A stretch of 64,000 bases of DNA from NCBI GenBank assembly GCA_964626665.1, contig CAZVGK010000016.1:1-64000 (forward strand), given 5' to 3'. The notes beneath the pieces were generated by a model. It made no database searches, was not told the DNA's origin, and worked only from the letters and a program-made list of their open reading frames with translations. Of the stretch, positions 13,252 to 48,091 are shown one piece after another. The DNA comes from an uncultured Gemmatimonadota bacterium. GTDB taxonomy: Bacteria; SM23-81; DAOVCL01. The position numbers and the translations under genes were made by a program. Within the stretch, counting starts at the first letter, position 1, and the number at the start of each line of letters is the position of its first letter.

Positions 13252-13581
13252 CTTCTAAGCTCCTTTCTATTAGCGAAGCTTCGCCTTCCCGGCCCAGGCA
13301 AACCGTCCAGCCAGGGCAGCACAAACTGGGCGAAGCTTCGCATGTAAAATTCACCTCGTTAAATATTTTTTGGTTTTAAGAGGCTGGACCTTTTTTCTAA
13401 TAGTTCTGTTTCTGCGTCTCTGATTCTCGGTTGGACTCACTATTTAACGGGGTGAAGAATTTATAATTAAAAATGAGAAAACCTGCAGCCAAGGGGCCTG
13501 GGGTTAAGCTCATCCTTCACCTCTTTCCTCCTACCCCCAAAACTTGACACAAATTTTAAGAAGTTGCCTTTTGAAGGAGAC

Positions 13582-13788
13582 TACCCTGGATTATTCATAA
13601 ACTGATGACGAATCAGTTATCTAAAGGTTGTCCCGTCATCCCGTAGGGACAGACCGGAACTTGTCCCGACTGCCGCAGGGGGTCGGGAGGTCTGTCCGCT
13701 TCCTTCGGACTCCGCTAAGGCGGAGTCCCTGGTATAAAACCTCTGATAATCGGAGATCCCCCCACTAATTTATGAATGGGTTGAGCTA
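13582..13788. mobile_element. MITE-like element with TA-bounded terminal inverted repeats enclosing a REP-like palindrome
   Basis: ends TACCCTGGATTATTCATAAAC and ATTTATGAATGGGTTGAGCTA; inverted homologue at 15593-15784; same end motif at 81-101 and ~58586-58605. Confidence 0.6.
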
Positions 13789-14050
13789 GTCAGCCAACTG
13801 GTTAAAACCATCAGGGATCAGCAGTGGGGTGGTCATCAGTTGTTGGTTGTCAGTTGTAATCAAACCGAGGTGGCAGAACCCCTGTTCTGCCACCGTCAGA
13901 TCGGGGAATCTGACGGCTCGAGAATTTCCATTTTCCAATTTCAATTTTCAACCCTTCGGGGCAGAAACCCTACCCACCCAGCTAATTCCCTTGTTTTCCT
14001 GATCCCTGTAAGCTGATCTCCGGGAACTGTGAACTGAATTCGATTAGCTG

Positions 14051-14079
14051 AATATAGGGGCTAAAATATGTCCTGTCAA
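14051..14079 (-). promoter_or_regulatory. sigma70-like promoter
   Basis: TTGACA-17 nt-TATATT on the minus strand. Confidence 0.55.
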
Positions 14080-14107
14080 CCTATTCTTGCCCAACAATCC
14101 CCTTCGT

Positions 14108-14869
14108 TTAAAACTCAACCCTTAAACCACCATAGGCCATCCTCACCCCTTTTATCCCTAACCTGTTGGCCAAGGCCTTAATGTGGTTTTCTTAGCCCTC
14201 CAGTTGGAGGGGGATATGGGTAAGGATGGTTTCCCCTATCCCCCGCTGGGAGACAAATCCCAATAGCTCCTCTATATTTATATGCATGCACTCGGTGATC
14301 AAAATATCCGGCGTGGAAACAAAATCCTCTAAATCAGAGAGGGAACCTATATCCCCCGAATAGTCCACTACCTTCCCCTCAGCCTCGATCTCAAAGGAGT
14401 AACTCTCTAAGTTCTGGTGAGGATCCGCCACCCCCTGATAATCCACTAGATGATGGTTGGCAAACACAGAAACCGATAGAACATCATTCGGCAAAATTGG
14501 ATTCCCTTTTAGCGGATGAAACCGCAGGGGAAAAGAGAGCCTCTCCGGAAAAAGATAGAAAGTTCGCGAGCAAACCCCAACTGCGGCCCTGGCCTCAGCC
14601 GGGAGTCAAACCTCAAATGGGGCCTGGCGGTTTGAAAGATACATAAGTTGCAAGAGTAGGGGAAGACCGGAAGAATGATCGGGATGCATATGGGAGATAA
14701 AACCAGCTACAATTGACTCCTGATTAATGTCCATCCGCAAGAGGGATGAGCTGCACCCCTCACCCATATCAAAAAGGTATCCCCTTTCCCCAACCTCGAC
14801 GAGGTAACTGGAGCTTGCCCGCTGGGGAACTGGCATACCAGAGGCCGAACCCAAAACAGTGATTCTCAA
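14108..14869 (-). pseudogene. MBL-fold metallo-hydrolase (RNase Z/BN-like) with two in-frame stop codons
   Basis: ITVLGSASG, LFDMGEG, SHMHPDH, YSGD, ITEC, LTH; frame stays continuous through TGA (14606-14608) and TAA (14192-14194) to TAA at 14108. Confidence 0.85.
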
Positions 14870-14953
14870 CCTACCTCAACTTGAAAATGTTCACTCTATA
14901 TCTCCCCTGAAGGGGGAGATGAGACAAGGGTAAAACCCCATCTTAACCTTCCC

Positions 14954-15175
14954 TTAACGGTCCCTTTCTTGGTCAACCGGTGGGGTTTCCTTGTCCACTG
15001 CGGCGACAAACTCCTCGATCTGATTCAATATCCCTTCATGTGGTGTATTCACGGTAAGGGCATTAAGCCTTTCATCCACATCTATAAAGCAAGTGTAGGT
15101 AATAACGCCTAAATCCTTGATTCTCCTCTCCATATCTTTAACGGAGACAAACTTCAAATAAAATGTCTTGATCAT
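14954..15175 (-). CDS. small protein resembling a single secretin N-terminal (NolW-like) domain
   Basis: MIKTFYLKF...VDERLNALTV...LNQIEEFVAAVD; G-rich SD before ATG 15175; perfect promoter upstream makes the 15334 start unlikely. Confidence 0.6.
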   Translation of the reverse strand: MIKTFYLKFVSVKDMERRIKDLGVITYTCFIDVDERLNALTVNTPHEGILNQIEEFVAAVDKETPPVDQERDR

Positions 15176-15206
15176 GTTCTCCCCTTTCCCTCTCTTAGCT
15201 GAGGCA

Positions 15207-15235
15207 ATTATAGGGAAGGAGAAAATGATTGTCAA
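15207..15235 (-). promoter_or_regulatory. perfect sigma70 consensus promoter
   Basis: TTGACA-17 nt-TATAAT on the minus strand. Confidence 0.8.
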
Positions 15236-15592
15236 GGAATTTTGCGGAATCCAATCTGGAAGATAAAGGCCAGCGGAAAGTCCTCTGGTAGGATTTGGAA
15301 TCGGCGCCCTTTGAACAGGCTCTAACTGAGCCAAGCCACCGCTAATTGGTATTTAAAGGCCTGACCTCAATTTGCCCTGAGCCGGCAGAACCCCTGTTCT
15401 ACAGGAGAAGGTAACATCCCGTTTATTGGGATGCCACCTCAAAGGGAATCGTATAGTTTTGAGGATGTGCTGGCCTAAGCTTTTGAGCACAGTGGTGATA
15501 CTTCTACCTCTTCAGCCGTGGCTAAGGAGGTGGGTGAAATCATCAAAAGGAAGGAAAACCCAAAGGGGGATCAAAAGGTGCCCCCTCCCCTC

Positions 15593-15784
15593 TAGCCCGA
15601 TCTATTCATAAATTCGGAGTAATACCTAAGCATCGTGAAGAGCTTTTTATCGTAGGGACAAGTCTTTAGACTTGTCCGAGGGAGCGGACAGACCTAAAGG
15701 TCTGTCCCTACACGAGAATACAGAATCCCACTGATCCCAAGAGATTACCTCAATCCGCTATCAGTTTATGAGTAATTCAGGCTA
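15593..15784. mobile_element. MITE-like element enclosing a GTAGGGACA..TGTCCCTAC REP doublet
   Basis: ends TAGCCCGATCTATTCATAAA and TTTATGAGTAATTCAGGCTA; inverted relative of 13582-13788. Confidence 0.6.
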
Positions 15785-15947
15785 GAATCCCTGCCCTCAG
15801 CAAGTAACCTAAGATCTACTTAAATTGTAAGCCTGATCCTCACCTTCCTGTTCTTTCCCCCTTGTTAAAAATCTTGCATGACAGAACAGCAGGTAAACGA
15901 AGCCCAGAAAAGACCAAATCTTTTATCAACTTAGGCATTTTATCCCA

Positions 15948-16415
15948 TTATTCATCCATCTCCCCATATTGGGGAGGAGCTTCTCCCACGGACTCCACAA
16001 CAAATGGATACTTTGCCTCTTCGTTAGGGGATTCCATGCCTTTAAGTTCAACAATAAAATGCCACTCATCCCCATAATCGAAAAGAAATAACATTCTCTT
16101 CTTAATTTTGTCAAAAACCTCATTCACCTTCGTTCTTTCTACACCCTTAAACTCACTCCCCTTTCCCATATCGGCAAATATTTCATACCCTTCCTCTGCC
16201 TCTGTCCACCTCTTTATGTTGTCATAAAACCCGAAAGGATGGTCAAAAGCAAAGTCAAAACTGCCCACGATTACCTCTGCCAAGCTATACAATGTGAATC
16301 CATCTGGAATTGCCAAAATTCTATAAGGCATACCCCTAATATGACCATACCAATCGCTCAGTATTACTTTAATCAGGTATATCCTTTCACCTTGTTTTGC
16401 CCTGTGCTTTATCAT
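15948..16415 (-). CDS. plasmid pRiA4b ORF-3-like protein
   Basis: TLYSLAEVI..SFDF.FDHPFGF, FLFDYGDEWHF.VEL, YP.VVESVGEAPPQY. Confidence 0.8.
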   Translation of the reverse strand: MIKHRAKQGERIYLIKVILSDWYGHIRGMPYRILAIPDGFTLYSLAEVIVGSFDFAFDHPFGFYDNIKRWTEAEEGYEIFADMGKGSEFKGVERTKVNEVFDKIKKRMLFLFDYGDEWHFIVELKGMESPNEEAKYPFVVESVGEAPPQYGEMDE

Positions 16416-16852
16416 ATAATTACCCCCTACTGCTGATGATATTAAAATTCCACCTAACCCGTAGCGAATAAGCAGATTTGAGCGGAACGAATACCTGTCT
16501 GATAAGCAAAATGGCCGCTCCAGCTTAGACCCTTGGTTTGTCTAAAGAACCAAGTTCACACCTCGGCTTCGTGGCCTTGCCAGCGCTATTTTGCCTATCT
16601 TGCTCGGGCTTTGCGAGGCTGCAAAGCCCGCAGTGTCTAACACCCGGCGGGCATTCACTAAAGAAGTAACAGTTTAGCCAACTGAGATCTAACCATCATT
16701 ATAGATTATCCGTTAAACACCGAAACCTACTTTGCTCGCTGTGGATGTTATCATCCACAGCGCTCGTCTATAATAATTCACGAAAGTTACTGATTTTCAA
16801 GAATTTGTCTTCTACTTTCCTTGTGGATGATAACATCCACAAGGAGCCCAAG

Positions 16853-16926
16853 AGCCTGCGGTTACCGCTTGCCCAACCAAAAACGCAAATCAGTATGGTG
16901 TCCCCAAAATTATCCCCAAAAATTAT
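16853..16926. repeat. junction repeat A copy 1 (...ACCGCTTGCCCAACCAAAAACGCAAATCAGTATGGTGTCCCCAAAATT) plus micro-duplication
   Basis: direct repeats at 17138-17206 and 18775-18830. Confidence 0.9.
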
Positions 16927-17137
16927 CCATCAGGGGTTACTCTGGCTTGCCGTAGAATGCCCCTCAATGTGCCAATGGCCAGCTCACAGTGCAGAGGAAC
17001 TAAACATCCTACAGCACCTTCCGAGGTTTGCTTTTTGAGCACCACGTGGCTGCCGCATCTTCTCGAAGCCCAAGCTATGGGGGCAAAAATTGGGTGGCAA
17101 AAGTTGTGAATTTACCTCGCTTCTTTTCACTCACTAA

Positions 17138-17206
17138 AGCCTGCGGCTACCGCTTGCCCAACCAAAAACGCAAATCAGTATGGTGTCCCCAAAATTCCCC
17201 AAAATT
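17138..17206. repeat. junction repeat A copy 2 plus CCCCAAAATT duplication; truncates the type III mod gene
   Basis: near-identical to 16853-16913. Confidence 0.9.
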
Positions 17207-17495
17207 CCAGTTTGTTGGTCCAGCCTTTAATTTGTCTGCCCTGAAAATCAGTGGCGAAAAAGTCATCCATCAATCCAGCCGTCTGCTCTTCTTTGCGGGG
17301 TTCGTCGATATATTCGATGGAATGAAAGGGCAGCACCGCATTGGTTACGGTTTCGCTGCGCCCGTTCCAGAACAGGAAAACATCCTCGTCATCAGCATAG
17401 AGTTTGTAAATGTATTCTTTGGGCAGGGGTTTGCCCTGTTTGATTAAATCGTTGATTTCGTTTTTTTCGGATTCGCTCAAATCCAGTTCCGCCAT
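17207..17495 (-). pseudogene. 5' fragment of a type III restriction-modification methyltransferase (Mod)
   Basis: GKPLP..Y...LFWNG....V.NAVLPF.SIE.IDEPR...GWTNKL, breaking off at repeat A where IWGDN would normally follow. Confidence 0.75.
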
Positions 17496-17496
17496 A

Positions 17497-17706
17497 TCAT
17501 TTTCTCATCTTTTCAATTTCATCGACAATTTCATCAAAATCCGGATTGCCGAGCCATTTGTGCCTGTCTTTGGTGTAGTCGCCTTCCCCTTTTTCTGTAA
17601 ATTGCAGAAACCGTATCATTCCGACAATGCCCAAATTTTTGCTCAGTGCATCCAAACCAGCCAATCGAATCTCCTTTGGCGTCATATCTTCAACTTTCAA
17701 TGGCAT
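17497..17706 (-). CDS. putative antitoxin partner of the PIN toxin
   Basis: 69 aa, GLDAL...LG.VG.IRFLQ...G.GDYT.DR; coupled to the PIN gene. Confidence 0.7.
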   Translation of the reverse strand: MPLKVEDMTPKEIRLAGLDALSKNLGIVGMIRFLQFTEKGEGDYTKDRHKWLGNPDFDEIVDEIEKMRK

Positions 17707-18146
17707 TATATTACCTCCTTAATCCACGATAATGGATTATCTGTTTTTACATTAATTTGATCAGCGTGCTTTTTTAACTTTGCTAACAAATTGTCATCAG
17801 TTGTCAGAAAAATATCTGCTTTTCCGACTTCAGCGCTTGCCACATGAAGCGCATCATAGGTTTTCATACCAAATTTTCGTATTTCTTTTGCCCGCGATAT
17901 TATTTTTGTATTCACCCTCAGATAAAGATTCGCTTTTGCAATCAACAAAAGAACTTTGTTTTTCTTTTCAATGTCGGGAATTTTATTTATCTCATAAACA
18001 ATGGCATCGCTATTCATTAAATCCCATTTACCGGACTCAATATATTTCATAATAGTCAATATTGCTTCAGATTCAAGGTGGATTCTATCTTGCGTCTGGT
18101 CATCAAATATTCGATTTAAACAACACACATCAAGGTATATTTTCAT
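17706..18146 (-). CDS. PIN-domain (VapC-like) toxin
   Basis: MKIYLDVCCLNR.FDDQ, DALHVASA, FLTTD acidic motifs. Confidence 0.88.
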   Translation of the reverse strand: MKIYLDVCCLNRIFDDQTQDRIHLESEAILTIMKYIESGKWDLMNSDAIVYEINKIPDIEKKNKVLLLIAKANLYLRVNTKIISRAKEIRKFGMKTYDALHVASAEVGKADIFLTTDDNLLAKLKKHADQINVKTDNPLSWIKEVI

Positions 18147-18149
18147 TAA

Positions 18150-18653
18150 CTAGCCCTTTTCAATGTCAAACAGCTTAATGATTTCATCGAATCTCTTTAT
18201 GTCCTTTTCATTTCTTTCCCATAATTCCTGCTTCACATACAGCGGGAAATATTGGCGTTCATCCTGCACAGCATTGACGTCGTTGCACCAGATTTGCAGG
18301 CGCTTGATTTTGCGCACATCATCCAGATCTTCCCTCCCTTTGGTCTCGGCAATGTAAATATGCCATTCGTTTCGTTTAATCAGGAAGTCGGGGAAGAATT
18401 CATGGATATTGCCATCCTCGCCCTGATATTCGATCTTAAAGCCAAGCGACTGATAATTTTTGGCGAAAGAAACAATATCAGTGCAATCTTCCAGAAAGGC
18501 AGCAAATTCCAGTTCAAACTGGCTGTCGCCGATGATTTTATTGAATACACTCTTCTGCGGAACCAGATAGGGCTGATTATCCGCTACCAGCGGTTTGACT
18601 TTGCGCAGCGAAATGTAATTTTTAATTTGCGCCGAACCTTTATCTCTCCCTAT
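18150..18653 (-). pseudogene. 3' fragment of a type III restriction endonuclease (Res) nuclease domain; no start codon, absent from ORF track
   Basis: manual translation ...KSVFNKIIGDSQFELEFAAFLE..VSFAKNY..FKIEY..FFPDFLIK..IAETKGREDLDD..RLQIWCNDVN..; PD-(D/E)xK motif. Confidence 0.82.
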
Positions 18654-18774
18654 TCAAAACATACGTATAATCATTGTCGGGTGCTCTGCAAAAAGGTTAA
18701 AAATTAAGTAGTCACAATCTTCAGATTGCGTAAGTTGTTGAGTTATTGGTTAGTTTCCGCTTACTAAGGATCTA

Positions 18775-18830
18775 CGGCTACCGCTTGCCCAACCAAAAGC
18801 GCAAATCAGTATGGTGTCCCCAAAATTATC
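18775..18830. repeat. junction repeat A copy 3
   Basis: CGGCTACCGCTTGCCCAACCAAAAGCGCAAATCAGTATGGTGTCCCCAAAATTATC. Confidence 0.9.
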
Positions 18831-18839
18831 TACCTTTAT

Positions 18840-19220
18840 TTATTTTCCAGAAGGAGGACGATGAACGCGCCATCTTCCTTCAGATGCTACAATCATAACA
18901 GGGGGAACACCCTCCAATGCTTCTTGCTCACTTTTCAGTATTTCCCCAACCTCATATGCAATTCTTTCCACATTGATAATCTCATATCGCAGCAGGATAA
19001 CCTTACCTCGTCCATATAAAGAACCGAACTCAAGAATGCCTCCAAAATCTTTATCGCCTGTCAGCAGGATTCTGTTTTCGCTTTCTGCCCATTCAAGCAC
19101 CCGTCGGTCATCACAACCTATAAGTCCAGCTTGAACAGCAGTTACCACATCGTGCCCATACTCTATTAGCTTGAATACGATGTCCGAATGGACATTTTCA
19201 TCAGCCAGAATCCTTGACAT
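18840..19220 (-). CDS. DUF5615 PIN-like toxin
   Basis: ILADENV, GHDV, D..VL..A..E.RILLT.DKDFG. Confidence 0.85.
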   Translation of the reverse strand: MSRILADENVHSDIVFKLIEYGHDVVTAVQAGLIGCDDRRVLEWAESENRILLTGDKDFGGILEFGSLYGRGKVILLRYEIINVERIAYEVGEILKSEQEALEGVPPVMIVASEGRWRVHRPPSGK

Positions 19221-19450
19221 TACGCTTTCTCCAATAGATGTACCTCTTCTCCCTGCATCTGTTTGGCAGCAAACTTAACCGCTGCTTGTGCTCCCTCTTT
19301 AGTCAGTGTGGGATATCCCTTTAATATATCCTCAACAGTCATCCCTGAGGCTAAACACTGAAGAATTAAAGCTACAGAAATGCGTGTCCCTTTGACAATA
19401 GGTTTCCCAGAAAGGATCGCGGGGTCACAAACAATCATTTCATTAACCAT
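19220..19450 (-). CDS. DUF433 antitoxin
   Basis: DPAILSGKPIVKGTRISV..IL..LASG...EDIL..YP.L; AGGAGG before ATG at 19450. Confidence 0.88.
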   Translation of the reverse strand: MVNEMIVCDPAILSGKPIVKGTRISVALILQCLASGMTVEDILKGYPTLTKEGAQAAVKFAAKQMQGEEVHLLEKA

Positions 19451-19649
19451 TTCGGTTACCTCCTTTTTAACCACGGAACAAGGGCCCAATGTCCATTATG
19501 TCACCAATCTTCTCTCAAGTTGGAGCAAAACCCTTGTTCCTATTACTCAAACCTATAATCGGCATTTGGGACTTCGGAATGTGCATAGAGGAACCTGCTG
19601 TCGATCAATGTTGCGTAAATCTCGTTCTGCGGATCCCTTCCAACAGATC

Positions 19650-19762
19650 TTGAACTCATTTGAAAAAGGACGGCGAAAAATGTAGAATGAAGACCTGACC
19701 CCTTTTCCGCCCCCTTAGCGCCCCCTTAGGACCCCTTTTCCGCCCCCTTAGCGCCCCCTTAG
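19650..19762. repeat. junction repeat B copy 1 (...CGAAAAATGTAGAATGAAGACCTGACCCC) followed by a perfect 33-bp tandem duplication
   Basis: second copy at 25887-25947; 19697-19729 = 19730-19762. Confidence 0.9.
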
Positions 19763-19925
19763 TATAACATCAACAAATATAATAAAAGGAATTCCTATTC
19801 TCAATTTATGATTTTATGGACGTCCCCCATTTTACCCGTCCCCTCTTTGCCTTGTGGAAGGAGAGGAACTCTCTGCTTGGCATCGGTCTTTTAAAAGGTA
19901 TTAGGTGAATTTACCGCCCACCTTT

Positions 19926-20993
19926 CTATTTTCCGATCAGTAAAACTTCCTCTGAATGATCGTTACTCAAAACATATTTATAACTTTTTCGCTTTAATTC
20001 CTCTACATTTGATTTGTATTTCTTTAATAGATTTACCAATTCCTCAATAGAAGGGATACCATCTGATCTATAAGAAACAACCAGAATACTATCTGCGAAC
20101 TTCTTGATTAATCTTTCAAAAGCTGAATGAATTCGATTTTTATCAATCCACCGATTCCCCCCTCCTCTCAATTTTTTATGTTTTGTCTGGTAATCAATTA
20201 TCTTTTCCCATTCAGAATATCTAACCAATCCTTCTAAAAAATGATAAAAGCCAAAATAGTCAACTCCTACACCTCTTTTTGAAATATATGGAGTATCAAT
20301 ATAAACCAGATGAAAATCTCCTTCAATATCAAAAACATCCAGATTAAGCGCCGTATTTTGCAAACCATTAGAAAATATAGCTTGATTGGCTTCAGAAACA
20401 AATTTTCTAAAATGTGTCTCAAAGGGAGTATCCCATGTAGTTTTATTTCCAAAATTTCTTTCAACTTTAGAGAATCTTAAATAAAGATTCTTTCTATGAA
20501 AGAGATTAAATGGCCTTTTAATTATACAAGCCTGAAAAAGGGCATAGTAAGCAAGAGCCCTTTTATATAGATTCTCCAATTGGCCTATATTAGTAACAAC
20601 AACATCTATCCATTGATTTTCCTCATCTGCAAAATAAATATCATTGAAAGTATCAGAAACAAAAGTAGGATATTTAACTTCTTTGTGTTTAGTAACCAAA
20701 AAATCTACATCTTTAGAGGTCAGTTTTACAGAATCATTCTCTATCAAAGCAAGCGCAGTAAACCAATTGAATTTTAATATGTCATTGTAAGTAACCTGTT
20801 TCCCTTTTTGTTTAAACATATAAGCAACACACCCTGTTCCACCAAATGCATCAAGAGCAGTATGGAATTGTATATCTTTGATACCTTCCCATATCCAATC
20901 TACTATCTTTAACTTGCTCCCCTGGTACCGCGTAGAAGGAAATACAGGGATTTTTTCAATTAAGGCCATCTGTTTTGAATTAACTTTGCTCAT
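19926..20993 (-). CDS. alpha-class N6-adenine DNA methyltransferase
   Basis: RYQGSK, LDAFGGTG (motif I) N-terminal; YIDTPY (motif IV) C-terminal. Confidence 0.88.
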   Translation of the reverse strand: MSKVNSKQMALIEKIPVFPSTRYQGSKLKIVDWIWEGIKDIQFHTALDAFGGTGCVAYMFKQKGKQVTYNDILKFNWFTALALIENDSVKLTSKDVDFLVTKHKEVKYPTFVSDTFNDIYFADEENQWIDVVVTNIGQLENLYKRALAYYALFQACIIKRPFNLFHRKNLYLRFSKVERNFGNKTTWDTPFETHFRKFVSEANQAIFSNGLQNTALNLDVFDIEGDFHLVYIDTPYISKRGVGVDYFGFYHFLEGLVRYSEWEKIIDYQTKHKKLRGGGNRWIDKNRIHSAFERLIKKFADSILVVSYRSDGIPSIEELVNLLKKYKSNVEELKRKSYKYVLSNDHSEEVLLIGK

Positions 20994-20996
20994 CCT

Positions 20997-21818
20997 TCAC
21001 GCCTTTTTCAATTTCTTATATTGAAAATACTCCTCAAGGTTTTTATAAGGAGCTCCTTTTAGGTCTACGGCCCTGGCCATATCTTTTGTCAGATAATACA
21101 TCCAATAGTCATCAAATACCCCTTCCCCAAGTTTTGCAAAAGGTCCGTTCCCATTTATCAACTCATCAATCTTCACAACTGAACCTATATTCTTTGTATT
21201 ACCACTCCCTGGCCTACCCGTAGCAATTTGGTATTTCTCCTGCACAAAGAAGGTAAAATCCTTTACAACCGAGGTTATTTCTTGAAGGTCCTCAAGACGA
21301 TAAACCTTTCTTTCGTCTAAATGTTCATCTGTACGGGAATAGACTATCCCCAACACTAAGTGTCCAACATACTCCTCATAAGGGAAGGTGATATTCTTCT
21401 TGCTCTTGCGATCACGGAAATAACCTGTAAATGCCCCGAGTGTCATGCCGTTTACTCTCTTCCCGTCCTTTCGATAGGTACTTTTTATATCTAAAGCATA
21501 CTTATTGTTAGCAAGATCAATAAAGGTCATGTCGGGGTAAAAATTCTGTTCTTTGCATAACACCATTTTGTAATTATTCTCTTGGGCAAACTGTGAAATC
21601 TTTGGGAAGAGGAGAATCTCCATTATTTTTGAGACAACTTTAGTATCAACAGAAATCGTATAGATATTTCTTGCAATATCAATAAACCCTTTCACAATCC
21701 AGTCTCCCTCATCGGTTGACATAGCCGAATTGAATCGTTCAACATCCTTTAAAAGCCGACTACGAAACTCTTGCTTTAATCTCCGTTTTTCTCCTAAATT
21801 TGCCATATTTCCCCTCAA
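20997..21818 (-). CDS. EcoRV-family type II restriction endonuclease
   Basis: DTKVVSKIME, QNFYPD, LDIKSTY, TLG.FT.YFR, NITFPY..Y..H..LG..Y.R, GSGNTKNIGS match EcoRV motifs. Confidence 0.85.
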   Translation of the reverse strand: MRGNMANLGEKRRLKQEFRSRLLKDVERFNSAMSTDEGDWIVKGFIDIARNIYTISVDTKVVSKIMEILLFPKISQFAQENNYKMVLCKEQNFYPDMTFIDLANNKYALDIKSTYRKDGKRVNGMTLGAFTGYFRDRKSKKNITFPYEEYVGHLVLGIVYSRTDEHLDERKVYRLEDLQEITSVVKDFTFFVQEKYQIATGRPGSGNTKNIGSVVKIDELINGNGPFAKLGEGVFDDYWMYYLTKDMARAVDLKGAPYKNLEEYFQYKKLKKA

Positions 21819-22659
21819 TCCTATCTTTGATAAGCTGACAATAATTTGGGTCTATCTCGATCATGATACACTTTCGACCTAACCCTTGAGCAACAAAGCC
21901 AGTAGTCCCTGAACCCGCAAATGGATCAAGAATCAAATCTCCTTCATCTGAGCCCGCCAATATTGCGTATTCTAAAATAATCGGCTGCTTGGTAGCAGGA
22001 TGTCTGAATGGATTCTTTCTTGCCCAATATTCCCAAAGATTTTTCATCTGAACCCCGCCGTTCAATTTTTTCATCGCCCAGTAGTTAAACTTAGTTTTAC
22101 CATTGAAATTCTTCTTAGCCCAAAGCATCGTTTCTGTAACTGCCCTAAAACAAGATCCTCTAAAATTAGGTGGAGCATTTATCTTATGAAGGATTATATC
22201 ATTGAGGATCTTAAATCCTAGATCCTGCAGCACAACATTTACTACTCCAATACTGTGATATGTGCCCGTTATCCAGATAGTAGAACCATCTTTTAGGATC
22301 CTCTGGGCTTCTTTTAACCAAGTATGGTGAAACTCAAACTGATATTGAAGAGATTTTGAATAAGCAAACTTTGCCTTTTGAGTATCAAATGTCTCTGCGT
22401 GTCCGTCATTACGCTTAATAATCAATCCAGATTGATTCCCGAAATAAGGGGGATCGGCAAAAATCATGTCAATGCAACGATCAGGAACCCTTTTGAGAAG
22501 ATGCAACGCATTCCCTTTAAAGAGTTTAATCTTTTTTTCAGGACTATAATAAAACGGAGCAAGTTCCTTCTCTCCATATTTTGCTTGTTCCTCAGCACAA
22601 AATATTTTATCTATGCCCCTGAAAATATCAGACATCTTATACATCGTCTTATCTCTCAC
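21760..22659 (-). CDS. beta-class amino (N6A/N4C) DNA methyltransferase
   Basis: IFADPPY N-terminal; HPATK and ILDPFAGSGTT C-terminal. Confidence 0.9.
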   Translation of the reverse strand: MRDKTMYKMSDIFRGIDKIFCAEEQAKYGEKELAPFYYSPEKKIKLFKGNALHLLKRVPDRCIDMIFADPPYFGNQSGLIIKRNDGHAETFDTQKAKFAYSKSLQYQFEFHHTWLKEAQRILKDGSTIWITGTYHSIGVVNVVLQDLGFKILNDIILHKINAPPNFRGSCFRAVTETMLWAKKNFNGKTKFNYWAMKKLNGGVQMKNLWEYWARKNPFRHPATKQPIILEYAILAGSDEGDLILDPFAGSGTTGFVAQGLGRKCIMIEIDPNYCQLIKDRIEGKYGKFRRKTEIKARVS

Positions 22660-22783
22660 AGTTTTTCCCTTTTATTAAAAACAGCAAGTAATTATTCTAT
22701 CTAATGGGGCGGCAGGTAAGCAAAGTCCCGACTTGTTGGGATTTGTAACAGCATAGCCGCTTACTGCCCGATAAGCTGACTAG

Positions 22784-23113
22784 TATTCCATTTAGCCTGG
22801 TGGCTTGCATCGGTTCTCAAGCTCGGTTACACATCAGCTTCGTGGCGTAGTCAGCGCCATTTCGCTTATCGTTTCTAACATAAAAAGATATTTGTGAAGT
22901 AAAAATCTGAATAAGCGCCAAAAGACACAAACCTTTTATTGAAAGACGTTTATCTGGCAACTCAAAGGTAAATCAGCAAAAGGATCTCCGTCTGGCCTGA
23001 GCTTGCCTGGACATCTATACGTCAATCGATTTGCTTTTGAGCCGAAAAGTTAGCCACTTTTGGGAAGGGGAGACACTTCTTGCTTGACTTTAATCTTTTG
23101 AAAGATGTTAAGC
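22784..23113. repeat. 330-bp non-coding repeat C copy 1, ending in GTTAAGC (attC-core-like)
   Basis: aligns without gaps to 25951-26280; partial homologues at 19851-19906 and ~16452-16640. Confidence 0.9.
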
Positions 23114-23128
23114 AACGTGTGGCTATAT

Positions 23129-23405
23129 TTAAGACGATTTAAAATTATCTCCCTTCTCACTTCTCCTATTCAATTTCCCATACTTTTCATTTTCTTCTCG
23201 CAAGTAAAAGCTCTTTTGACCACTCCGTTCAATCCAGTCTCCAACACAAAATTTATTGAAGCGGAATTTTGACCCTTCTAAGTACTCATCAATAATGTCA
23301 GTAGCTATCCAGCGTCGTTTGAGACGTTCGCAAACCTCTCCCGTCACGTTCGAGCCAGCAAATGGGTCAACTACAAGGTCACCTTCATCAGTTAGCATTT
23401 TACGG
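23129..23405 (-). pseudogene. C-terminal fragment of a beta-class (probably N4-cytosine) DNA methyltransferase
   Basis: [28 protein letters not shown]; catalytic SPPY/DPPY half missing. Confidence 0.8.
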
Positions 23406-24281
23406 TTAGAGAATATGTGATCCATTCTTAGATGCAAGACGCCAGACATAGCCATCAAACGTGATTAAACCTCTCTTTTTCAAGCTCTGTTGAGCATTTC
23501 GAACATGATGTTTCCACGCTTTCCCGAATCTTTCACCATGGATAATTAACTCTATCGAGTCATCGCAGAGATCAGGCAATAGTCGTTGTATGTTTGGATG
23601 TAGGTGCCGGGTTGGTAGTGGCTCGTGCGATAAGACGTACAATATGGCTTCTGAGAAAAGGGAATGGGCTGACCTTGCACCAACGAGTGCTTCAGCAAAT
23701 CTGACATTCGCACTTTTCAGTTTTTCATCAAACCGCCTTTTAGCTGAAGCAGCGGCTGACCGTTGAACATTACGATATTCAGCAGATATTTCTTCAGCGA
23801 CTTGGGATAGCTCGTCGATTTGCGCTCCTGAGAGAATGTTGCCAACCCGTGCGTACGCATCCATGTCAGCTTTGATGCGTTGCACCAGAATAGGATCTCG
23901 GATTCCAACACCATACTCGTAATTTGAATTAAGGCCAGAGTAAGTAAGATTAGCGGAACCTACCACAGCTAGTGAAGTGTCAAAAATATAAACCTTTGCG
24001 TGAAAATGCGGAAGGGTTATCATTTCTAAATTTCTCATCAGGTTTTGGAATATCTTTAGTGCATCCATATCGAGAGAACCGCTCAGAACACTTCCAGCTC
24101 TCAAATCAGTTATAACACGCACAATAAGTTCTTTGCCCGATTCCTCAGAAAGCAGACGGTCGCAGACATATTCTGCCTCGGATCTCTTAATAAATGGCGT
24201 GGCAATTATAAGTTCACTTCTCGCGTGATCTAAGGCTCTCTCGAACTGAGATCTCCATGGACTTCTATATAATTCGATCAT
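23406..24281 (-). CDS. phospholipase-D-family (single HKD) nuclease with C-terminal Mrr_N-like winged helix
   Basis: HAKVYIFD...VGSANLT..GL..NYE; C-terminal [18 protein letters not shown]....VWRL. Confidence 0.8.
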
Positions 24282-24287
24282 AGTAAT

Positions 24288-25655
24288 TCAATTAGCTCGC
24301 ATTAGCACGAATGGAATTTGACTTTCTAACACTCTTCGGAACAATTTGGCTCCATTTGCAACGTTCAAAATTTCCTTCCGTCCGATAAGTATTACTTGCT
24401 TTCCATATTCATTACGGACCAGTTCAGCATACTTTTTAGCTGCTTCGCTGATTCTTCCCGTACCAATAATCACCGCCACTTGTGAGCCAAAGTGTATCAT
24501 CAGCCCCACCTCTTTGGCTACATCGTCAAGGGAGACAAATTTGGTGTTTTTGCATTGTATTTGCCATCGAGAGAATATTAGGCGTGCTCCCTCAAAGATT
24601 AAATCAACCTCTGCACCACCTGTGACTTGACCACGAAGACGAGTTGCTACATACTTTAAATCAATTAATCTCATCAGATAGAATGCAAGAGCTTCAAGAG
24701 CTAACCCCTTTACATATCTATCAGCCGACGACAACTCCTTCAATATTTCGGTGAGGGGCTTCCTCAACATAGGGCGAAGATCAGGATGTGCTTGGCTTTG
24801 AAGACATTCAATAAGGGGAGTGATAAGCTCGGATTTCATCTTATCAGTAAGCCTTACCTGGAAAGGCTTGGCGCCTCGCCCAATCTTTTTAGTTCCTCTT
24901 TCCAGATATATATAGCCAGCTTTTTCAATAGGATAGAGCACGGTTTTAGGCAGATTCTTCTCATCGAATTTCACCCCGTATGTTGTACTTGCCAGTTTCT
25001 CCACCTCATTTGACCAGTAAGGTCCGGTTTCTCCCATATTTGCCAGGGTTTTCAGGAAGGCCTTTTGCTCGATAGTAAGCATAGAAAGTTCATCTATTAT
25101 ATCTTCGGACACACCGATAATTTCTTCGAGACGACTGACATCTATTTGCCAATCAGTGGAGGTAACTACTCCTGCCTTCTCAAGCCACAGGCGCATTATG
25201 CTTGGGTGTTTCCCTCCCCGAGGAAAGTAAATGCCTCTTTCCTGAAGCCATTCGCGTAATTTTCGCAGATCTACTCTCTCGCCACGTGCCTGCATATCTT
25301 GAACCGTTTGCACAACTATTAATCCTTTGAGATTTAATAAAATATGTTGTGCAAAAACTTGATATATCTTTTCAGGTGTCCTTTTAAGAGAAAGGAGTCT
25401 CTTCCCAAAATCAGTTAAGTTACCATCGCGGTGAAGAACACCATAGGCTATCATTCCTAATTTACAGTTGTTTGCAAGCTTTCGGCGATTATATTCACTT
25501 GTTGGGTGCGAGTCAAAATACTCGTGTCGTATTGAGTTTTCAAGAGCATGCCAATCTCCACTGTGTCCTTCTGCCATTTCCAAAACACGAATAAGGTCAA
25601 TCTGGCTTGGTGAGAATTCACTTCCAAAGGGAAGATCACTTTTTACCATATTCAA
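24288..25655 (-). CDS. restriction endonuclease with C-terminal Mrr-like PD-(D/E)xK domain
   Basis: KGLALE..A..L...GGAEVDLI...WQIQCKN (QxK variant), V.KEVG. Confidence 0.75.
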   Translation of the reverse strand: MNMVKSDLPFGSEFSPSQIDLIRVLEMAEGHSGDWHALENSIRHEYFDSHPTSEYNRRKLANNCKLGMIAYGVLHRDGNLTDFGKRLLSLKRTPEKIYQVFAQHILLNLKGLIVVQTVQDMQARGERVDLRKLREWLQERGIYFPRGGKHPSIMRLWLEKAGVVTSTDWQIDVSRLEEIIGVSEDIIDELSMLTIEQKAFLKTLANMGETGPYWSNEVEKLASTTYGVKFDEKNLPKTVLYPIEKAGYIYLERGTKKIGRGAKPFQVRLTDKMKSELITPLIECLQSQAHPDLRPMLRKPLTEILKELSSADRYVKGLALEALAFYLMRLIDLKYVATRLRGQVTGGAEVDLIFEGARLIFSRWQIQCKNTKFVSLDDVAKEVGLMIHFGSQVAVIIGTGRISEAAKKYAELVRNEYGKQVILIGRKEILNVANGAKLFRRVLESQIPFVLMRAN

Positions 25656-25886
25656 ATCCCCCGATTATTATATGTTTTAACCTGTATTCTGGAAAGCCAT
25701 AAATTGCTCTATAAGTAGCTGAAATCATTAGAGAGGCCCTCTTGGTTTTTATGAACTACAATCTCCCGCAAAGTTCAAATATATCGCTATTTCAATAAGT
25801 TACAAAACCACCTTCCAGAATACGAATTACATGTTAATGCTGCAATTCGTATGGTATCCCCTCAAAAACAGAAATTGAATACGGTA

Positions 25887-25947
25887 TTGAACCCATTTGA
25901 AAAAGGGCTACGAAAAATGTAGAATGAAGACCTGACCCTTTTTTCGC
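25887..25947. repeat. junction repeat B copy 2
   Basis: TTGAACCCATTTGAAAAAGGGCTACGAAAAATGTAGAATGAAGACCTGACCC matches 19650-19710. Confidence 0.9.
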
Positions 25948-25950
25948 TCT

Positions 25951-26280
25951 TACTCCATTTAGCCTGGTGGCTTATATCGGTTCTCAAGCTCGGTTACACA
26001 TCAGCTTCATGGCATAGTCAGCGCCATTTCGCTTATCGTTTCTAACATAAAAAGATATTTGTGAAGTAAAAATCTGAATAAGCGCCAAAAGACACAAACC
26101 TTTTATTGAAAGACGTTTATCTGGCAACTCAAAGGTAAATCAGCAAAAAGATCTCCGTCTGGCCTGAGCTCATCTGGACATCTGTGCGCCAATCGATTTG
26201 CTTTTGAGGCGAAAAGTTAGCCACTTTTCGGAAGGGAAGACACCTCTTGCTTGACTTAGGCCTTTTAAAAAGTGTTAGGC
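25951..26280. repeat. 330-bp non-coding repeat C copy 2, ending in GTTAGGC
   Basis: near-identical to 22784-23113. Confidence 0.9.
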
Positions 26281-26296
26281 GAACCTCTTCGTTTCC

Positions 26297-27844
26297 TTAA
26301 TATGCTTTTATTGTAACTATGAAAGGTACTATCTTTTTAACTTGATCTTCCAAAGAGTCATTTGTCAGGCTGCTTTTTCTGTGGATGATCTCATCGCCCT
26401 CTGGTAACATTGAAACTATGTTTTTCAGATAATCCACTTTGATTGCAAAATTTACATTTTGGGGGATTATATCCAATTTTTCGTAAAAGTATTTCACATT
26501 AAGGGTGGCGATAACTACTCCCACAATTTCACCTCTACTATTGAAAAGAGGTCCGCCACTGTTACCCGGTTGAACGGGATTGCTAATTTGTAATAGACGT
26601 GGGTCATCAGATATTCCATAAAGTGAGTTGATGACTCCCTTGGATAACTTCGGCGATTTTCCTAATATTTCACCGAGTGGGTAACCTATTGTGAAAACAT
26701 CCTCCCCAACATTTGCATCAGAGGAATTCGCAAACCCGAAGGGGATGGTCAAACTGAATTGCTTGGAGAAATTCACATCCTCTACTCTCAGCAGCACTAT
26801 ATCATTATTTATGTCTTTCAAGGCAACTTTTGTTTGATAAGTTTCATTCTCGTAAGGGAAGGACACCTCAATCTTTTTTGAATCGCTAATTACGTGATAA
26901 TTGGTTACTACCAATCCACTTTGACTTAAAAGAAAACCACTCCCCGAAACAGGAAAGTGCCGACTTTCAGGTGTGACATCTGTACCATAACCCGATTCCA
27001 GATCTTTTGGATAATTTTTTATGAAGGACATTTGCAATGGAGAATTGTCTGGATTTCTAAGTGTCATTGTCAACAGTCCACCCTCACTAATTCTTGAAGT
27101 AGTGCCTTGGTTGGATTTATCTGCCATAAAGTATGTAGTAGCATAAACATTTGGATAGGCACTTGCGACAAACTCCATTTTCACGTCACCCAGCTTCCAG
27201 AGAGGTTTTTCAGTGTTCATAACAGTCGCCACAAAATCCCTTTTGTTCGATAGAGTATCCTTAAATATTCCGACAGTATAGCTATTGTCCGTTGCGGTCC
27301 AGATACCTTCTAATGGGTCAAGGCTGTGCAGATTCGAATCGAAGTATTTGACTAAATCATCTTTGGTCTTCTGGATATCCTCCCACTCAGGATATTGAAC
27401 GTATCCTTCGGAGAAACCAGTGTATTCCTTTGCAATTCCCGAAAACGCCTGTCTTATCGCGCCCACCACATCACCACGTCTACCCCACCCCATTCCATAC
27501 TCACCTTTACCAGTGAAAACATTCTTATGCATATAATAGTCGTCTAATTGAATATGGACGATAGCAGCCGGCACTGAGACAGTATAGCTGTATCTACAAA
27601 GGAGCACTTTGTTCATTTCTCTCTCCGGAAGGCTCTTTATCGTAAATTCATCTAAGACAACAAAACCTTCTTGAGAAAACAACGAAGAGAGTTCCATTTG
27701 CGTTTCATAGACGTCAAACCGCAATGGATTGATGACAACATATTTATAGGCATTTAGACTTGAACCTGGCTTAACCAAATGTTGGCTTGACACACAGCCG
27801 GCAAGGAGAACCAACAGTAAACCAATTAAAGTTAATCGTTTCAT
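26297..27844 (-). CDS. lipoprotein with C-terminal trypsin-like (HtrA-type, no PDZ) serine protease
   Basis: lipobox LLAGC; GSGF, TNYHV, DIVLL, GNSGGPL triad; GGAGG before ATG 27844. Confidence 0.88.
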   Translation of the reverse strand: MKRLTLIGLLLVLLAGCVSSQHLVKPGSSLNAYKYVVINPLRFDVYETQMELSSLFSQEGFVVLDEFTIKSLPEREMNKVLLCRYSYTVSVPAAIVHIQLDDYYMHKNVFTGKGEYGMGWGRRGDVVGAIRQAFSGIAKEYTGFSEGYVQYPEWEDIQKTKDDLVKYFDSNLHSLDPLEGIWTATDNSYTVGIFKDTLSNKRDFVATVMNTEKPLWKLGDVKMEFVASAYPNVYATTYFMADKSNQGTTSRISEGGLLTMTLRNPDNSPLQMSFIKNYPKDLESGYGTDVTPESRHFPVSGSGFLLSQSGLVVTNYHVISDSKKIEVSFPYENETYQTKVALKDINNDIVLLRVEDVNFSKQFSLTIPFGFANSSDANVGEDVFTIGYPLGEILGKSPKLSKGVINSLYGISDDPRLLQISNPVQPGNSGGPLFNSRGEIVGVVIATLNVKYFYEKLDIIPQNVNFAIKVDYLKNIVSMLPEGDEIIHRKSSLTNDSLEDQVKKIVPFIVTIKAY

Positions 27845-27921
27845 AGTATCCTCCAATTAAAGCAAAATTTCGCCCAATGGGTAGACAATCTAGTAACATT
27901 TCCTTGGATGCAAACCCTATT

Positions 27922-28046
27922 TAATGTCTGTCCGAAAATACCCCTATTCTTGTCATTCCGGTGATCTTTAAGCCGGAATCTACTTGAAATTAGCAATGGA
28001 TTCCCGCTAATGGCGTGCGGGAATGACAAATTCGGACAGACACTAT
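27922..28046. mobile_element. small MITE-like palindrome (TGTCTGTCCGAA...TTCGGACAGACA) enclosing GTCATTCC...GGAATGAC hairpins
   Basis: nested inverted repeats seen directly. Confidence 0.65.
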
Positions 28047-28129
28047 TTAGCCTGTAGAATATATATCTCCGCGAGAATGCGGCAGCGGGCTACGGGAAGT
28101 TCACCCGTTAAGGCCTGTGCAACTTAAGT

Positions 28130-29053
28130 TTAGATAGAGCTTTTAGGTAGATATTCTTGAAACCATTTGGGCAGTGCCCGCCAAAAAGGGCCAAATAAAT
28201 CCCAATGTTTTCCTATATGCTCCACATATTTTGCTAAGAGATTCCTAAAATCATTCTCAGATATAGGAAATGCAGATAGCAAGTCGGGATCTCTATTTTT
28301 GAATTTTATTACAATGTCCTCAACTCGATTAAAATAATCTCTCGCAAAATTGGGATAAAAAGGAAATCCCCACCCCCAATCGTTCTCGCCTAAAATCTCA
28401 ATTTTAACGCATTGTAGAAAATTAAATTGACACAAAGAATCAACATAACTGTCATCTACAAGTGAGAAATACCTCTCTCTTATTTGCTCATCCTCTGAAA
28501 GTTTCTTCCGTGCATCTTCAAAAAAGTTTGTTAGATTACCCGCACCCCATCCGTTTTCATACCAAGGGTAATAGAATATTGAGCGATATAATTTTTCGCC
28601 GTCACTTTTCCTGAGCAAGACAACTCGTTCATCACCTAATAATGATACAAAATCATATACATTGTCTACTACAGCAATTGAACCCACAATGAGCATTCTG
28701 ACTGTAGCTTCATATCCTGGCAACAAATGACCCAAGTGTTCTGTTTCGGACGAATAGTTAAATCCAATGTTCTTACTGTAACGTTGATGACGTTGATAGT
28801 ATGTTGATAGGTTAATGACATTTCTGAAGAAGGCTGCGACCTCTTTATATAGATTATCTCTTTTCCGCTCAATTATCAAGGCTGTTAAATCTGTGATCTT
28901 ATTTAAAGTAGGGATGAGCACTCCTGATTTAAATGCCCTGACTTCATCTTTTGAGAGTGTATTTTCAGTATACTTTTGAAGTAACCTTTCCCAATGGATT
29001 TTGATTTCTTTATTGAGGGTTCTTATCTTTTCTACAAAATCGTAACTACTCAT
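28130..29053 (-). CDS. hypothetical protein translationally coupled to the Schlafen/AlbA_2 gene
   Basis: 307-aa ORF; 4-bp ATGA overlap with 29050..29745. Confidence 0.8.
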   Translation of the reverse strand: MSSYDFVEKIRTLNKEIKIHWERLLQKYTENTLSKDEVRAFKSGVLIPTLNKITDLTALIIERKRDNLYKEVAAFFRNVINLSTYYQRHQRYSKNIGFNYSSETEHLGHLLPGYEATVRMLIVGSIAVVDNVYDFVSLLGDERVVLLRKSDGEKLYRSIFYYPWYENGWGAGNLTNFFEDARKKLSEDEQIRERYFSLVDDSYVDSLCQFNFLQCVKIEILGENDWGWGFPFYPNFARDYFNRVEDIVIKFKNRDPDLLSAFPISENDFRNLLAKYVEHIGKHWDLFGPFWRALPKWFQEYLPKSSI

Positions 29054-29745
29054 TTGCTTAACTCCTTAAATGCTTTTTTAAAAAATACTTTTCTCTCTAA
29101 ATCGAACAGTTCTTCGCTTTCCTTTTCCTTCCAGTAAATATTTCTTAACTTGAAAGCTTTCTCATAATATCTCTCTAATAATTCTTCCCAAGAATCAGTA
29201 TCTATAGGCTTAGTCGCCGAATGACGTCTGACATATATAGTGCCAGCGTGCAAGCTGGGTTTATCTTTACTTCCATCTCTATAGCTGTAATTTCCATTTA
29301 TGATGTGAGGTCTACTCCTAAATTCAGGAATATAGATCAAACCTACTCCGATAGATTTGCCTTTGTTATTCTCGAATTTGCCAACATATGTGTGCAAATT
29401 AATAGGTGGTGATATGAATTTTGATAATGTTTGCGAAATTTTAGTTGGGTCTAAATCACTTTGCGTTTTTTCGTTGATTCCGATGACCTCACGAGCCTTA
29501 GGTTCTATACCAATGACAATATATCCTCCACCGACATTGGAGAATGCCGAAACATCTTTACTAAACTCTTGGCATGTCTTTTTATTAGAAGCACTAAATG
29601 TGGATTTATAGTCTACCCTGTTAGTTTCCCTCTTAAAGCTAACTAGCAAAGATAGGTTTTTATCATCAAGAACACCTACTTGTAATCCTCGAGGGTAATC
29701 TATATCTTCATTTTTTTGAAAATCTCTACTTGCAAAATCATTCAT
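29050..29745 (-). CDS. Schlafen/AlbA_2 domain protein
   Basis: RETNRVDYK (E-x4-D-x-K), KDVSAFSNVGGGYIVIGI, IYVRR. Confidence 0.85.
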   Translation of the reverse strand: MNDFASRDFQKNEDIDYPRGLQVGVLDDKNLSLLVSFKRETNRVDYKSTFSASNKKTCQEFSKDVSAFSNVGGGYIVIGIEPKAREVIGINEKTQSDLDPTKISQTLSKFISPPINLHTYVGKFENNKGKSIGVGLIYIPEFRSRPHIINGNYSYRDGSKDKPSLHAGTIYVRRHSATKPIDTDSWEELLERYYEKAFKLRNIYWKEKESEELFDLERKVFFKKAFKELSK

Positions 29746-29996
29746 AAAAATGTCCTCTTATGTTCTTAAGGCGATACCCTAACAGGTTGGCGGATAAGCG
29801 GAATCTTGACTTGTGAAGACTTAGGAGGAGAAATTGGAAAACAGTTCGATGAATTAAATGAGCTCAAATCTATTTAAGCACTCTGTCTTTCAGTCACGGC
29901 GTGAGATGAGCTTCGCAGTAAGAAAATGAAAAGAACCAGACGAGTCGTCTTATCTGGCACAATGCTCTAGACATATCCGCTGGGAGAATGGTGCCT

Positions 29997-47883: not shown

Positions 47884-48091
47884 GGTTAAACCTCATCAGT
47901 AACTGTTCACCACGGAATCTCACGGAAATAAGCAATTATGAATTAAGAATTAAGTTTATGCTGCTTATTCCTGATTAGTGATTCCTGTTTTTCTGTGTTA
48001 ATCTGTGGTGAAATTACCACGGAATCTCACGGAACTATACAGTCTTTGCTCCTTGTAGATGTTATCATCCACAAGGAGATTTCTTCTTCCT

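Follow-up and report, generated by a model that had tools for sequence, protein, structure and literature searches.

Co-oriented solo ends of TIRYT elements, with tandemly reiterated tips, in a defence island of an uncultured Gemmatimonadota bacterium

Introduction

In a 64,000-nt stretch of DNA from an uncultured Gemmatimonadota bacterium (GenBank assembly GCA_964626665.1, contig CAZVGK010000016.1, positions 1 to 64,000), short repeats with GGGG(A/T)C end motifs, here called repeats A and B, all face the same way and stand between gene fragments and defence genes. This stretch is referred to as the window; it lies on contig C16 of a 3.17-Mb genome (G000). An earlier note on this DNA had proposed that the motifs mark stacked segments with one fixed and one variable end, mobilised by a single-strand HUH enzyme. 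The locus thus raises two questions: what are these repeats, and do they take part in joining the unrelated sequences found beside them?

We compared the window with the rest of its genome, with two sister genomes (G001 and G002), with loci from relatives and metagenome contigs (L-numbered, including L002, L080, L082, L084 and L087) and, as a read-level check, with Logan contigs of four public salt-marsh runs, one of which (X1) may be the source sample. As judged by sequence comparison, A and B were shown to be solo 3' ends from two TIRYT/TIRtron families, each consisting of the last codons of the element's gene and an inverted-repeat tip. Elements of the TIRYT kind are already known; new here are the co-oriented array of solo ends, the chimeric unit that several of them have in common, and a junction at a look-alike of the element end.

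Repeat A and B copies in the window

The copies assigned to the two families are as follows.

16853..16905, plus strand: A1, solo 3' end of an A-type TIRYT element, with tip GTATGGTGTCCCC (16893-16905) and, to its left, part of a GTAG-type repetitive extragenic palindrome (REP)
17106..17190, plus strand: A2, solo A-type 3' end; tip at 17178-17190, left part REP-derived as in the copy on contig C46
18683..18831, plus strand: A3, GTAG-type REP doublet ('R') in its full length, joined to the terminal ~33 nt of an A-type 3' end
19614..19701, plus strand: B1, last 23 codons of a B-type TIRYT gene and inverted-repeat tip at 19677-19701
19813..19843, plus strand: A-like tip TATGGACGTCCCC, with CGTCCCC again 16 nt downstream (weak)
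25849..25861, plus strand: degenerate A-type tip GTATGGTATCCCC, abutting the B2 gene remnant
25870..25938, plus strand: B2, last ~19 codons of a B-type TIRYT gene and tip at 25914-25938

The repeat A 13-mer GTATGGTGTCCCC was found exactly at 16893-16905, 17178-17190 and 18809-18821, within a 59-nt family that begins at 16853, 17138 and 18769 (identity 90-98%), and with one mismatch (GTATGGTATCCCC) at 25849-25861. The 13-mer occurs 11 times in the 3.17-Mb genome, versus 0 occurrences of the reversed control. Repeat B is represented by an identical 25-mer ending GAAGACCTGACCC at 19677-19701 and 25914-25938, within a 61-nt family of 90% identity. In B1 the stop codon of the gene remnant is the TAG within TGTAG; B2 is 87% identical to C58 3329-3398, and a further repeat (repeat C) starts 12 nt after its tip. 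At 25849 the degenerate A tip directly adjoins the B2 remnant; an A-type end thus cuts a B-type transposase gene 19-20 codons before its stop.

The three exact A copies, the degenerate one near 25850 and the two B copies listed in the earlier note were found in their places, and the common orientation described there held for all verified copies. Its degenerate B copy at ~15831 fell away: the same word (GCCTGATCC) is also present at 49539 and is indistinguishable from chance. GGACGTCCCC lies at 19818-19827, and the reported doubling of CGTCCCC is present at 19821 and 19837; however, five further occurrences in the window make this 7-mer weak evidence, and its second copy is too short to be distinguished from chance.

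The A unit is a chimera of the right part of a GTAG-type REP doublet and the last ~33 nt of an A-type 3' end. One common REP/TIRYT-end junction, with differing leftward extents, was found in A1, A2, A3 and the C46 copy. All four thus derive from copying of a single solo unit, and the three A copies in the window are not independent of each other. The REP doublet itself ('R'; window 18683-18795, e.g. also C10 22994-23098 and C35 7099-7205) has ~36-40 copies in G000, often as inverted pairs ~66 nt apart. No 'R' copy was found within 1.5 kb of a Y1 gene among the nine Y1 loci checked.

Identity of the repeats

TIRtrons are RAYT-like genes flanked by inverted repeats; their enzymes are called TIRYT, and the repeat tips have the consensus GGGGWSAS, as given in the body text of Di Nocera, De Gregorio and Rocco 2013 (PMC3733652). 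Both tips match this published consensus (A, GGGGACAC; B, GGGGTCAG). A B-type gene of 323 codons was located at C58 3349-4317 between inverted B motifs (3283-3299 / 3330-3346 on one side and 4366-4382 on the other). Its stop codon is the TAG inside TGTAGAATG, i.e. within the B motif, and its product matches Pfam Y1_Tnp and Bac_DnaA_C. An A-type Y1 gene lies at C2 91362-92023, with inverted GTATGGTGTCCCC motifs at 91345 and 92066; it is split by a frameshift into open reading frames (ORFs) of 137 and 85 codons. The link to Y1/TnpA-REP-like genes that the earlier note had suggested was thus borne out on both contigs, where Y1/RAYT-like HUH genes stand inside inverted A motifs (C2) or inverted B motifs (C58).

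Pfam Y1_Tnp matched the C58, C2 and C21 proteins with E-values of 1e-9 to 5e-16, and the Y1 HUH core residues H60, H62 and Y120 were invariant in the protein alignment. With the NCBIfam model REP_Tyr_transpos (cut-off 80 bits), the B-type protein scored 84.1 bits and the A-type N-terminal half 72.0 bits, the latter under the cut-off, while transpos_IS200 gave only 18-21 bits. Gene-less A mini elements of ~210 bp were found at C10 81094-81303 and C53 791-1001, further solo ends on C2, C5 and C7, and the same families in the sister genome G001. Pattern matches with two mismatches in G001 and G002 were no more frequent than the reversed control and were dropped. The A and B ends folded no better than shuffled sequence (z -0.8 to -1.1); the neighbouring REP hairpin at 16822-16841 gave a z of -8.6.

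The enzyme itself is not encoded in the window, as the earlier note had stated. No integrase, DDE transposase or Y1 domain was present among the 54 window ORFs scanned for Pfam domains, and the C58 transposase protein used as a tblastn query gave no match on C16. The notion that the motifs are ordinary paired terminal repeats of an insertion sequence (IS) stood in one respect only: intact copies are indeed paired inverted repeats, but the window copies are solo and there is no target-site duplication, since neither in the C2 element nor in the mini elements do the two outer flanks match as direct repeats.

Co-oriented genes separated by repeats look like a cassette array, and a different recombination system has to be weighed, either integron attC sites or DDE IS ends with target-site duplications. 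The domain scan described above is at odds with both, the ends lack a significant fold, and the intact C2 and C10 copies have no matching direct repeats at their two flanks. The integron/attC reading was rejected because of the absent integrase domain and the absent fold, and with it went the integron-type 'cassette layer' that the earlier note had assumed.

Several other arrangements of related elements were observed. Two intact, near-identical 221-codon TIRYT-like genes occur at C21 25817-26482 and 28857-29522; each is flanked by a short hairpin, AATAGG-GACACTT-CCTATT, whose loop includes GGGACAC, inverted between the two ends. At C2 92487-93425, a 0.9-kb segment with a membrane-protein ORF and an RHS-repeat gene fragment truncated after GARYY is bracketed by two solo 5'-type A ends that point towards each other; a further co-oriented end lies 421 bp from the full C2 element. 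In G001 (C57 1515-2193, locus L073), two co-oriented solo B ends are 659 bp apart and have the same 9-nt outer flank; one of them has a third, degenerate B tip 10 nt before it. In the outer flank of the B-type element, whose enzyme carries the DnaA-like domain, TGTGGATTT-like words occur twice (C58 3230-3300), a single case; we take these words to resemble a DnaA box.

Tandem reiteration at the tips

At three of the window ends the tip sequence is reiterated in tandem; such reiterations are referred to as stutters.

16902..16926, plus strand: A1 stutter, CCCCAAAATTAT (16902-16913) followed by CCCCAAAAATTAT (16914-16926), with one extra A in the second unit
17187..17206, plus strand: A2 stutter, CCCCAAAATT twice (17187-17196 and 17197-17206)
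19697..19762, plus strand: B1 stutter, a 33-nt unit twice, beginning with the last 6 nt of the tip

The stutters and the 33-bp duplication noticed earlier are accordingly real features of the sequence, with units of 12+13, 10+10 and 33+33 nt. Each 33-nt unit at B1 contains the 11-mer CGCCCCCTTAG twice, and both levels of duplication share their right edge. At A3 the tip (18809-18821) is followed by AAAATTATCT, and there is no stutter.

Read-derived data agreed with the assembly. The A2 stutter was identical in Logan contigs of 4/4 runs, the A1 stutter was present in those of run X1, and a separate metagenome contig (L084) carries both. Logan contigs stem from a k=31 assembly, so they break at the 33-nt duplication. 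In view of these contigs and of the domain, folding and flank results above, we consider a different recombination system or an assembly artefact highly improbable as the source of the array.

The frequency of stutters was assessed on a set of A-type ends from G000, G001 and metagenome contigs, in which 57 motif hits gave 47 with family context and finally 27 distinct ends. A gapless tandem unit was present at 12 of the 27, and in 11 of these 12 the first unit ended 5-9 nt past CCCC. Among 3000 control windows centred on CCCC, 283 had any tandem unit and 14 (~0.5%) had one at the tip-matched position. The stutter rate is therefore ~80 times that at other CCCC runs (11/27 vs 14/3000).

A survey of other phyla, in which species-representative genomes were scanned with an alignment of four G000 Y1 proteins, gave a similar picture. 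Of 80 loci kept, 79 contained the gene; a GGGG-tipped repeat pair was recognised in 28 of these, and 51 without a pair by the set criteria were dropped. A tandem unit was present at 19 of 54 scorable ends, 15 of them near the tip, compared with 49 of 1213 other CCCC windows in these loci. Unit length was 7-29 nt there and reached 47 nt on C58. Records labelled Geobacter, Phycisphaerae, Bacillota, Actinomycetes and Armatimonadetes, among others, had the same 13-nt tip.

Stutters have their outer edge ~5-11 nt outside CCCC; the inner edge is variable, lying anywhere between 1 nt beyond the repeat and 22 nt within it. Apparently one and the same mini-element end bears different stutters in two relatives (L002 versus L080). 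No description of tandem tip reiteration was found in the literature searched, and the word 'duplication' is absent from PMC3733652, figures and supplements aside.

Junctions with neighbouring segments

Two segments between the ends are relevant to the junctions.

17209..18647, minus strand: middle part of a type III restriction-modification operon, at the DNA level 74% identical to its intact counterpart on G002 C70
18840-19220 and 19220-19489, minus strand: DUF5615 / DUF433 pair (Pfam), between A3 and B1

The 1.44-kb operon piece lies between A2 and A3 and is cut at both ends, with the order res'-PIN-antitoxin-mod'. It comprises the N-terminal 96 codons of mod (17209-17495), an antitoxin-like ORF (17497-17706), a PIN gene (17706-18146) and the C-terminal ~165 codons of res (18150-18647), with Pfam matches to PIN and RE_endonuc. 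Judged by the intact G002 operon, mod is cut at 17209 and res at 18647. The rest of the operon is absent from G000, where only distant paralogues were found. In the intact type III operon (L017; G002 C70 1-3664), the PIN/antitoxin pair also stands between res and mod.

At the mod break, the intact G002 gene reads AATCAGTTTGTTGTCGCCCCAGAT and the A end reads AATCAGTATGGTGTCCCCAAAAT. The local score of this look-alike is 13, a value equalled in 17/27264 control windows of G000. The retained mod sequence starts 6 nt past the CCCC of the look-alike, near the outer edge of the stutter. The point of resumption in mod, which had been called arbitrary, is thus not so: it coincides with an A-end look-alike in the G002 gene. 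Junctions at look-alike sites are not mentioned in PMC3733652 or PMC6006769, figures and supplements aside.

Of the other points of resumption described for this locus, the one beside the DUF5615 stop was confirmed, the stop (18840) lying 9 nt beyond the A3 unit. Resumption mid-way in repeat C held for 19851-19925, which is the last ~75 nt of that repeat, but not for 25951, which is its start. At the B2/repeat C junction only 7/8 nt match, at a different offset, and a look-alike is not claimed there.

Repeat C is 330 nt long (22784-23113 and 25951-26280, 93% identical), and its last ~75 nt, including the separate tail at 19851-19925, always stand directly 3' of the stop codon of a minus-strand gene. 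Within it, GGGGAGACAC (23067-23076) matches GGGGWSAS, in reverse orientation relative to A and B. A tRNA or non-coding RNA reading of repeats A and C was dropped, as Rfam gave no match in 13000-30000.

Strain variation

Run X19 has a contig in which 92 nt of an A2-like unit run straight into the flank of DUF5615, alongside the reference form. The junction fits either a gain of the operon fragment together with A3 or their loss; alone, it shows only that junction. Mini elements in L080, L082 and L087 have one flank in common and the other flank different.

A single contig of low depth from run X20 leads from 26014 back into 22848 via repeat C, with 134 nt ambiguous. It may reflect a circular or tandemly copied methylase-fragment/PLD/Mrr segment, or else be chimeric. 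Two candidate joints, 17151->19803 and 17199->19805 (X20, X21), were set aside; their sides are <30 nt, and they are probably other REP-family copies. A third, 19642->17121, was considered as a circle and rejected, being the C46 locus.

Such variants raise the possibility that the array was made only by homologous recombination and local duplication among the 60-180-nt A units and the 330-nt repeat C, with the units as passengers. The identity among A copies (90-98%) and between repeat C copies (93%) would favour this process, which would yield both the variant seen in X19 and, via repeat C, the joint in X20. However, it leaves unexplained why ends adjoin sequence unrelated to them (mod, repeat C, the remnant of the B gene) and accounts for neither the stutters nor the look-alike site. 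We regard homologous recombination as the only process at work as quite unlikely.

Proposed mechanism and its standing

In the mechanism that we propose, a TIRYT enzyme would nick one strand a few nt outside the CCCC tip. From the 3'-OH at the nick, a short stretch could then be synthesised before the strand is resealed by the enzyme, which would have stayed on the other end. Resealing would leave a stutter, a tandem reiteration of the last 8-47 nt in which the outer edge is constant and the inner edge varies. Strand exchange of the end with a second end or with a look-alike site would join the fixed end to foreign DNA; genes would be cut in the process, and co-oriented ends would remain between stacked segments. 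The stutter step has this form because it is modelled on the amplification scheme proposed for TnpA-REP (PMC3333891). Relaxed-site cleavage and strand transfer by that enzyme in vitro are reported in the body text of this paper (Ton-Hoang et al. 2012), whose authors put forward models for amplification in tandem and for how flanking genes, or fragments of genes, could be captured.

The stuttered tips and the mod junction suggest, at the level of sequence patterns, that the enzyme still breaks and rejoins DNA at the ends. One-ended capture by a HUH enzyme is plausible by analogy, with the published model as precedent. TIRYT solo ends subject to nicking, primed synthesis and strand exchange at ends or look-alikes are the best explanation of the locus and, in our judgement, a fairly probable one. 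The broader proposal is more tentative: that TIRYT ends serve as recombination sites for a single-strand HUH enzyme and are joined to ends or look-alikes anywhere, building co-oriented arrays of captured gene fragments and defence modules, with the stutters as nick footprints. We see this as possible but doubtful.

Several observations weigh against joining by the enzyme. The sole A-type gene in G000, that on C2, is frameshifted, so activity on the A ends may be past or may need another enzyme. The TIRYT literature, to the extent of the main texts cited here, describes no cutting or movement by any TIRYT enzyme. The A3 and C46 copies are without stutters, and the edges of the stutter units show no common dinucleotide. 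The mod break is the only junction with a known 'before' sequence, and its look-alike was noticed prior to testing; at C2 92500, where the RHS fragment is cut, no look-alike is evident, a close intact relative for comparison being lacking. When flanks of 11 related loci were compared with G000 for an empty site, none was contiguous. No circle junction was present in the Logan contigs, which cannot reveal rare forms, and the X19 variant could equally come from homologous recombination between A copies.

Part of this evidence would be expected of passive relics, i.e. decayed TIRtron insertions trimmed in a recombination-prone island, with stutters caused by replication slippage at C runs and ends that are not involved in joining. 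The frameshifted gene, the copies without stutters and the lack of empty sites and circle junctions all agree with such an origin, as does the mosaic of several repeat families and gene fragments in the island. In contrast, one chimeric junction in four copies means that these were copied as solo units and did not decay separately. The excess of stutters over other CCCC runs, their outer edge, which is fixed across phyla, and the coincidence of the mod break with an end look-alike also speak against passive decay. We consider this origin unlikely, although it retains appreciable weight.

If it is true that the ends act as recombination sites, they would form an HUH-based counterpart of integron or ISCR capture. 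If they join foreign DNA, TIRYT elements, found in a wide range of bacterial phyla, would contribute to the shaping of defence islands and to the truncation of genes. Under the proposed mechanism, the fixed outer edge, the look-alike junction and the end-bounded strain differences would indicate the place of the cut, its substrate and its product.

Comparison with known systems

Like the TIRtrons described in the body text of PMC3733652, the elements found here have a RAYT-like Y1 gene between GGGGWSAS-tipped inverted repeats, and the 3' repeat overlaps or abuts the stop codon. TIRtron repeats are likewise found there as singles, dimers and groups. The window differs in having solo, co-oriented 3' ends only and no gene. 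Most TIRYT were placed in TnpA-Y1 subclass 2.1, part of them with a DnaA-like domain, in the text of Quentin et al. 2018 (PMC6006769), and the Bac_DnaA_C domain of the B-type enzyme agrees with this subclass. The REPtron/BIME system of E. coli has a related Y1 enzyme, TnpA-REP (main text of PMC3333891). However, recognition by TnpA-REP needs GTAG and an imperfect hairpin, whereas the A and B ends lack both a significant hairpin and a GTAG with this function; other G000 repeat families do combine the two.

IS200/IS605 elements (IS608, ISDra2) share with the present families a Y1 HUH transposase, the use of single-stranded DNA and the absence of target-site duplication. In IS608, the target resembles the sequence at the cleaved end. 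These elements differ in having subterminal hairpins on one strand and no inverted repeats, whereas the A and B ends are inverted repeats without a significant fold, and the NCBIfam scores obtained here favour REP_Tyr_transpos over transpos_IS200.

IS91, ISCR and Helitrons use larger two-tyrosine HUH proteins; no two-tyrosine HUH gene was found here in a search that covered less than the whole genome. They resemble the array in having one fixed end on variable neighbouring DNA and in acquiring neighbouring genes, a comparison made in the text of PMC3333891. Integron arrays are similar in their co-oriented genes between recombination sites and in single-stranded site recombination, but the window has no integrase domain among the scanned ORFs and no folded attC-like sites among the ends.

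Genomic setting and further repeat families

The window lies near gyrB and gyrA and contains a low-GC island at 15.8-29.7 kb (GC 31-46% versus 47-57% outside). This defence island is placed between an aldehyde dehydrogenase gene and gyrA. Its genes are all on the minus strand and encode toxin-antitoxin, restriction-modification, PLD, Mrr, protease and Schlafen-type proteins. Synteny with G001 and G002 is lost at two places, the island and the C10 mini element. The plus strand has negative GC skew which, together with gene orientation, suggests that all ends may have their G-rich strand on the template for lagging-strand synthesis.

At 14192-14869, two adjoining short ORFs match two halves of a metallo-beta-lactamase fold and are probably a broken gene. 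A perfect 20-25-nt palindromic REP family (window 16740-16759, 16822-16841 and 48048-48075) has 112 genome copies at <=2 mismatches; copies at C2 27505, 27751 and 28373 flank a separate RAYT-like Y1 gene (C2 27756-28364). Further short repeat families, with 10-60 copies each in G000, were found at 13270-13975, 15595-15784 and L025 334-501. One of them is ~170 nt long and has >40 copies per sister genome.

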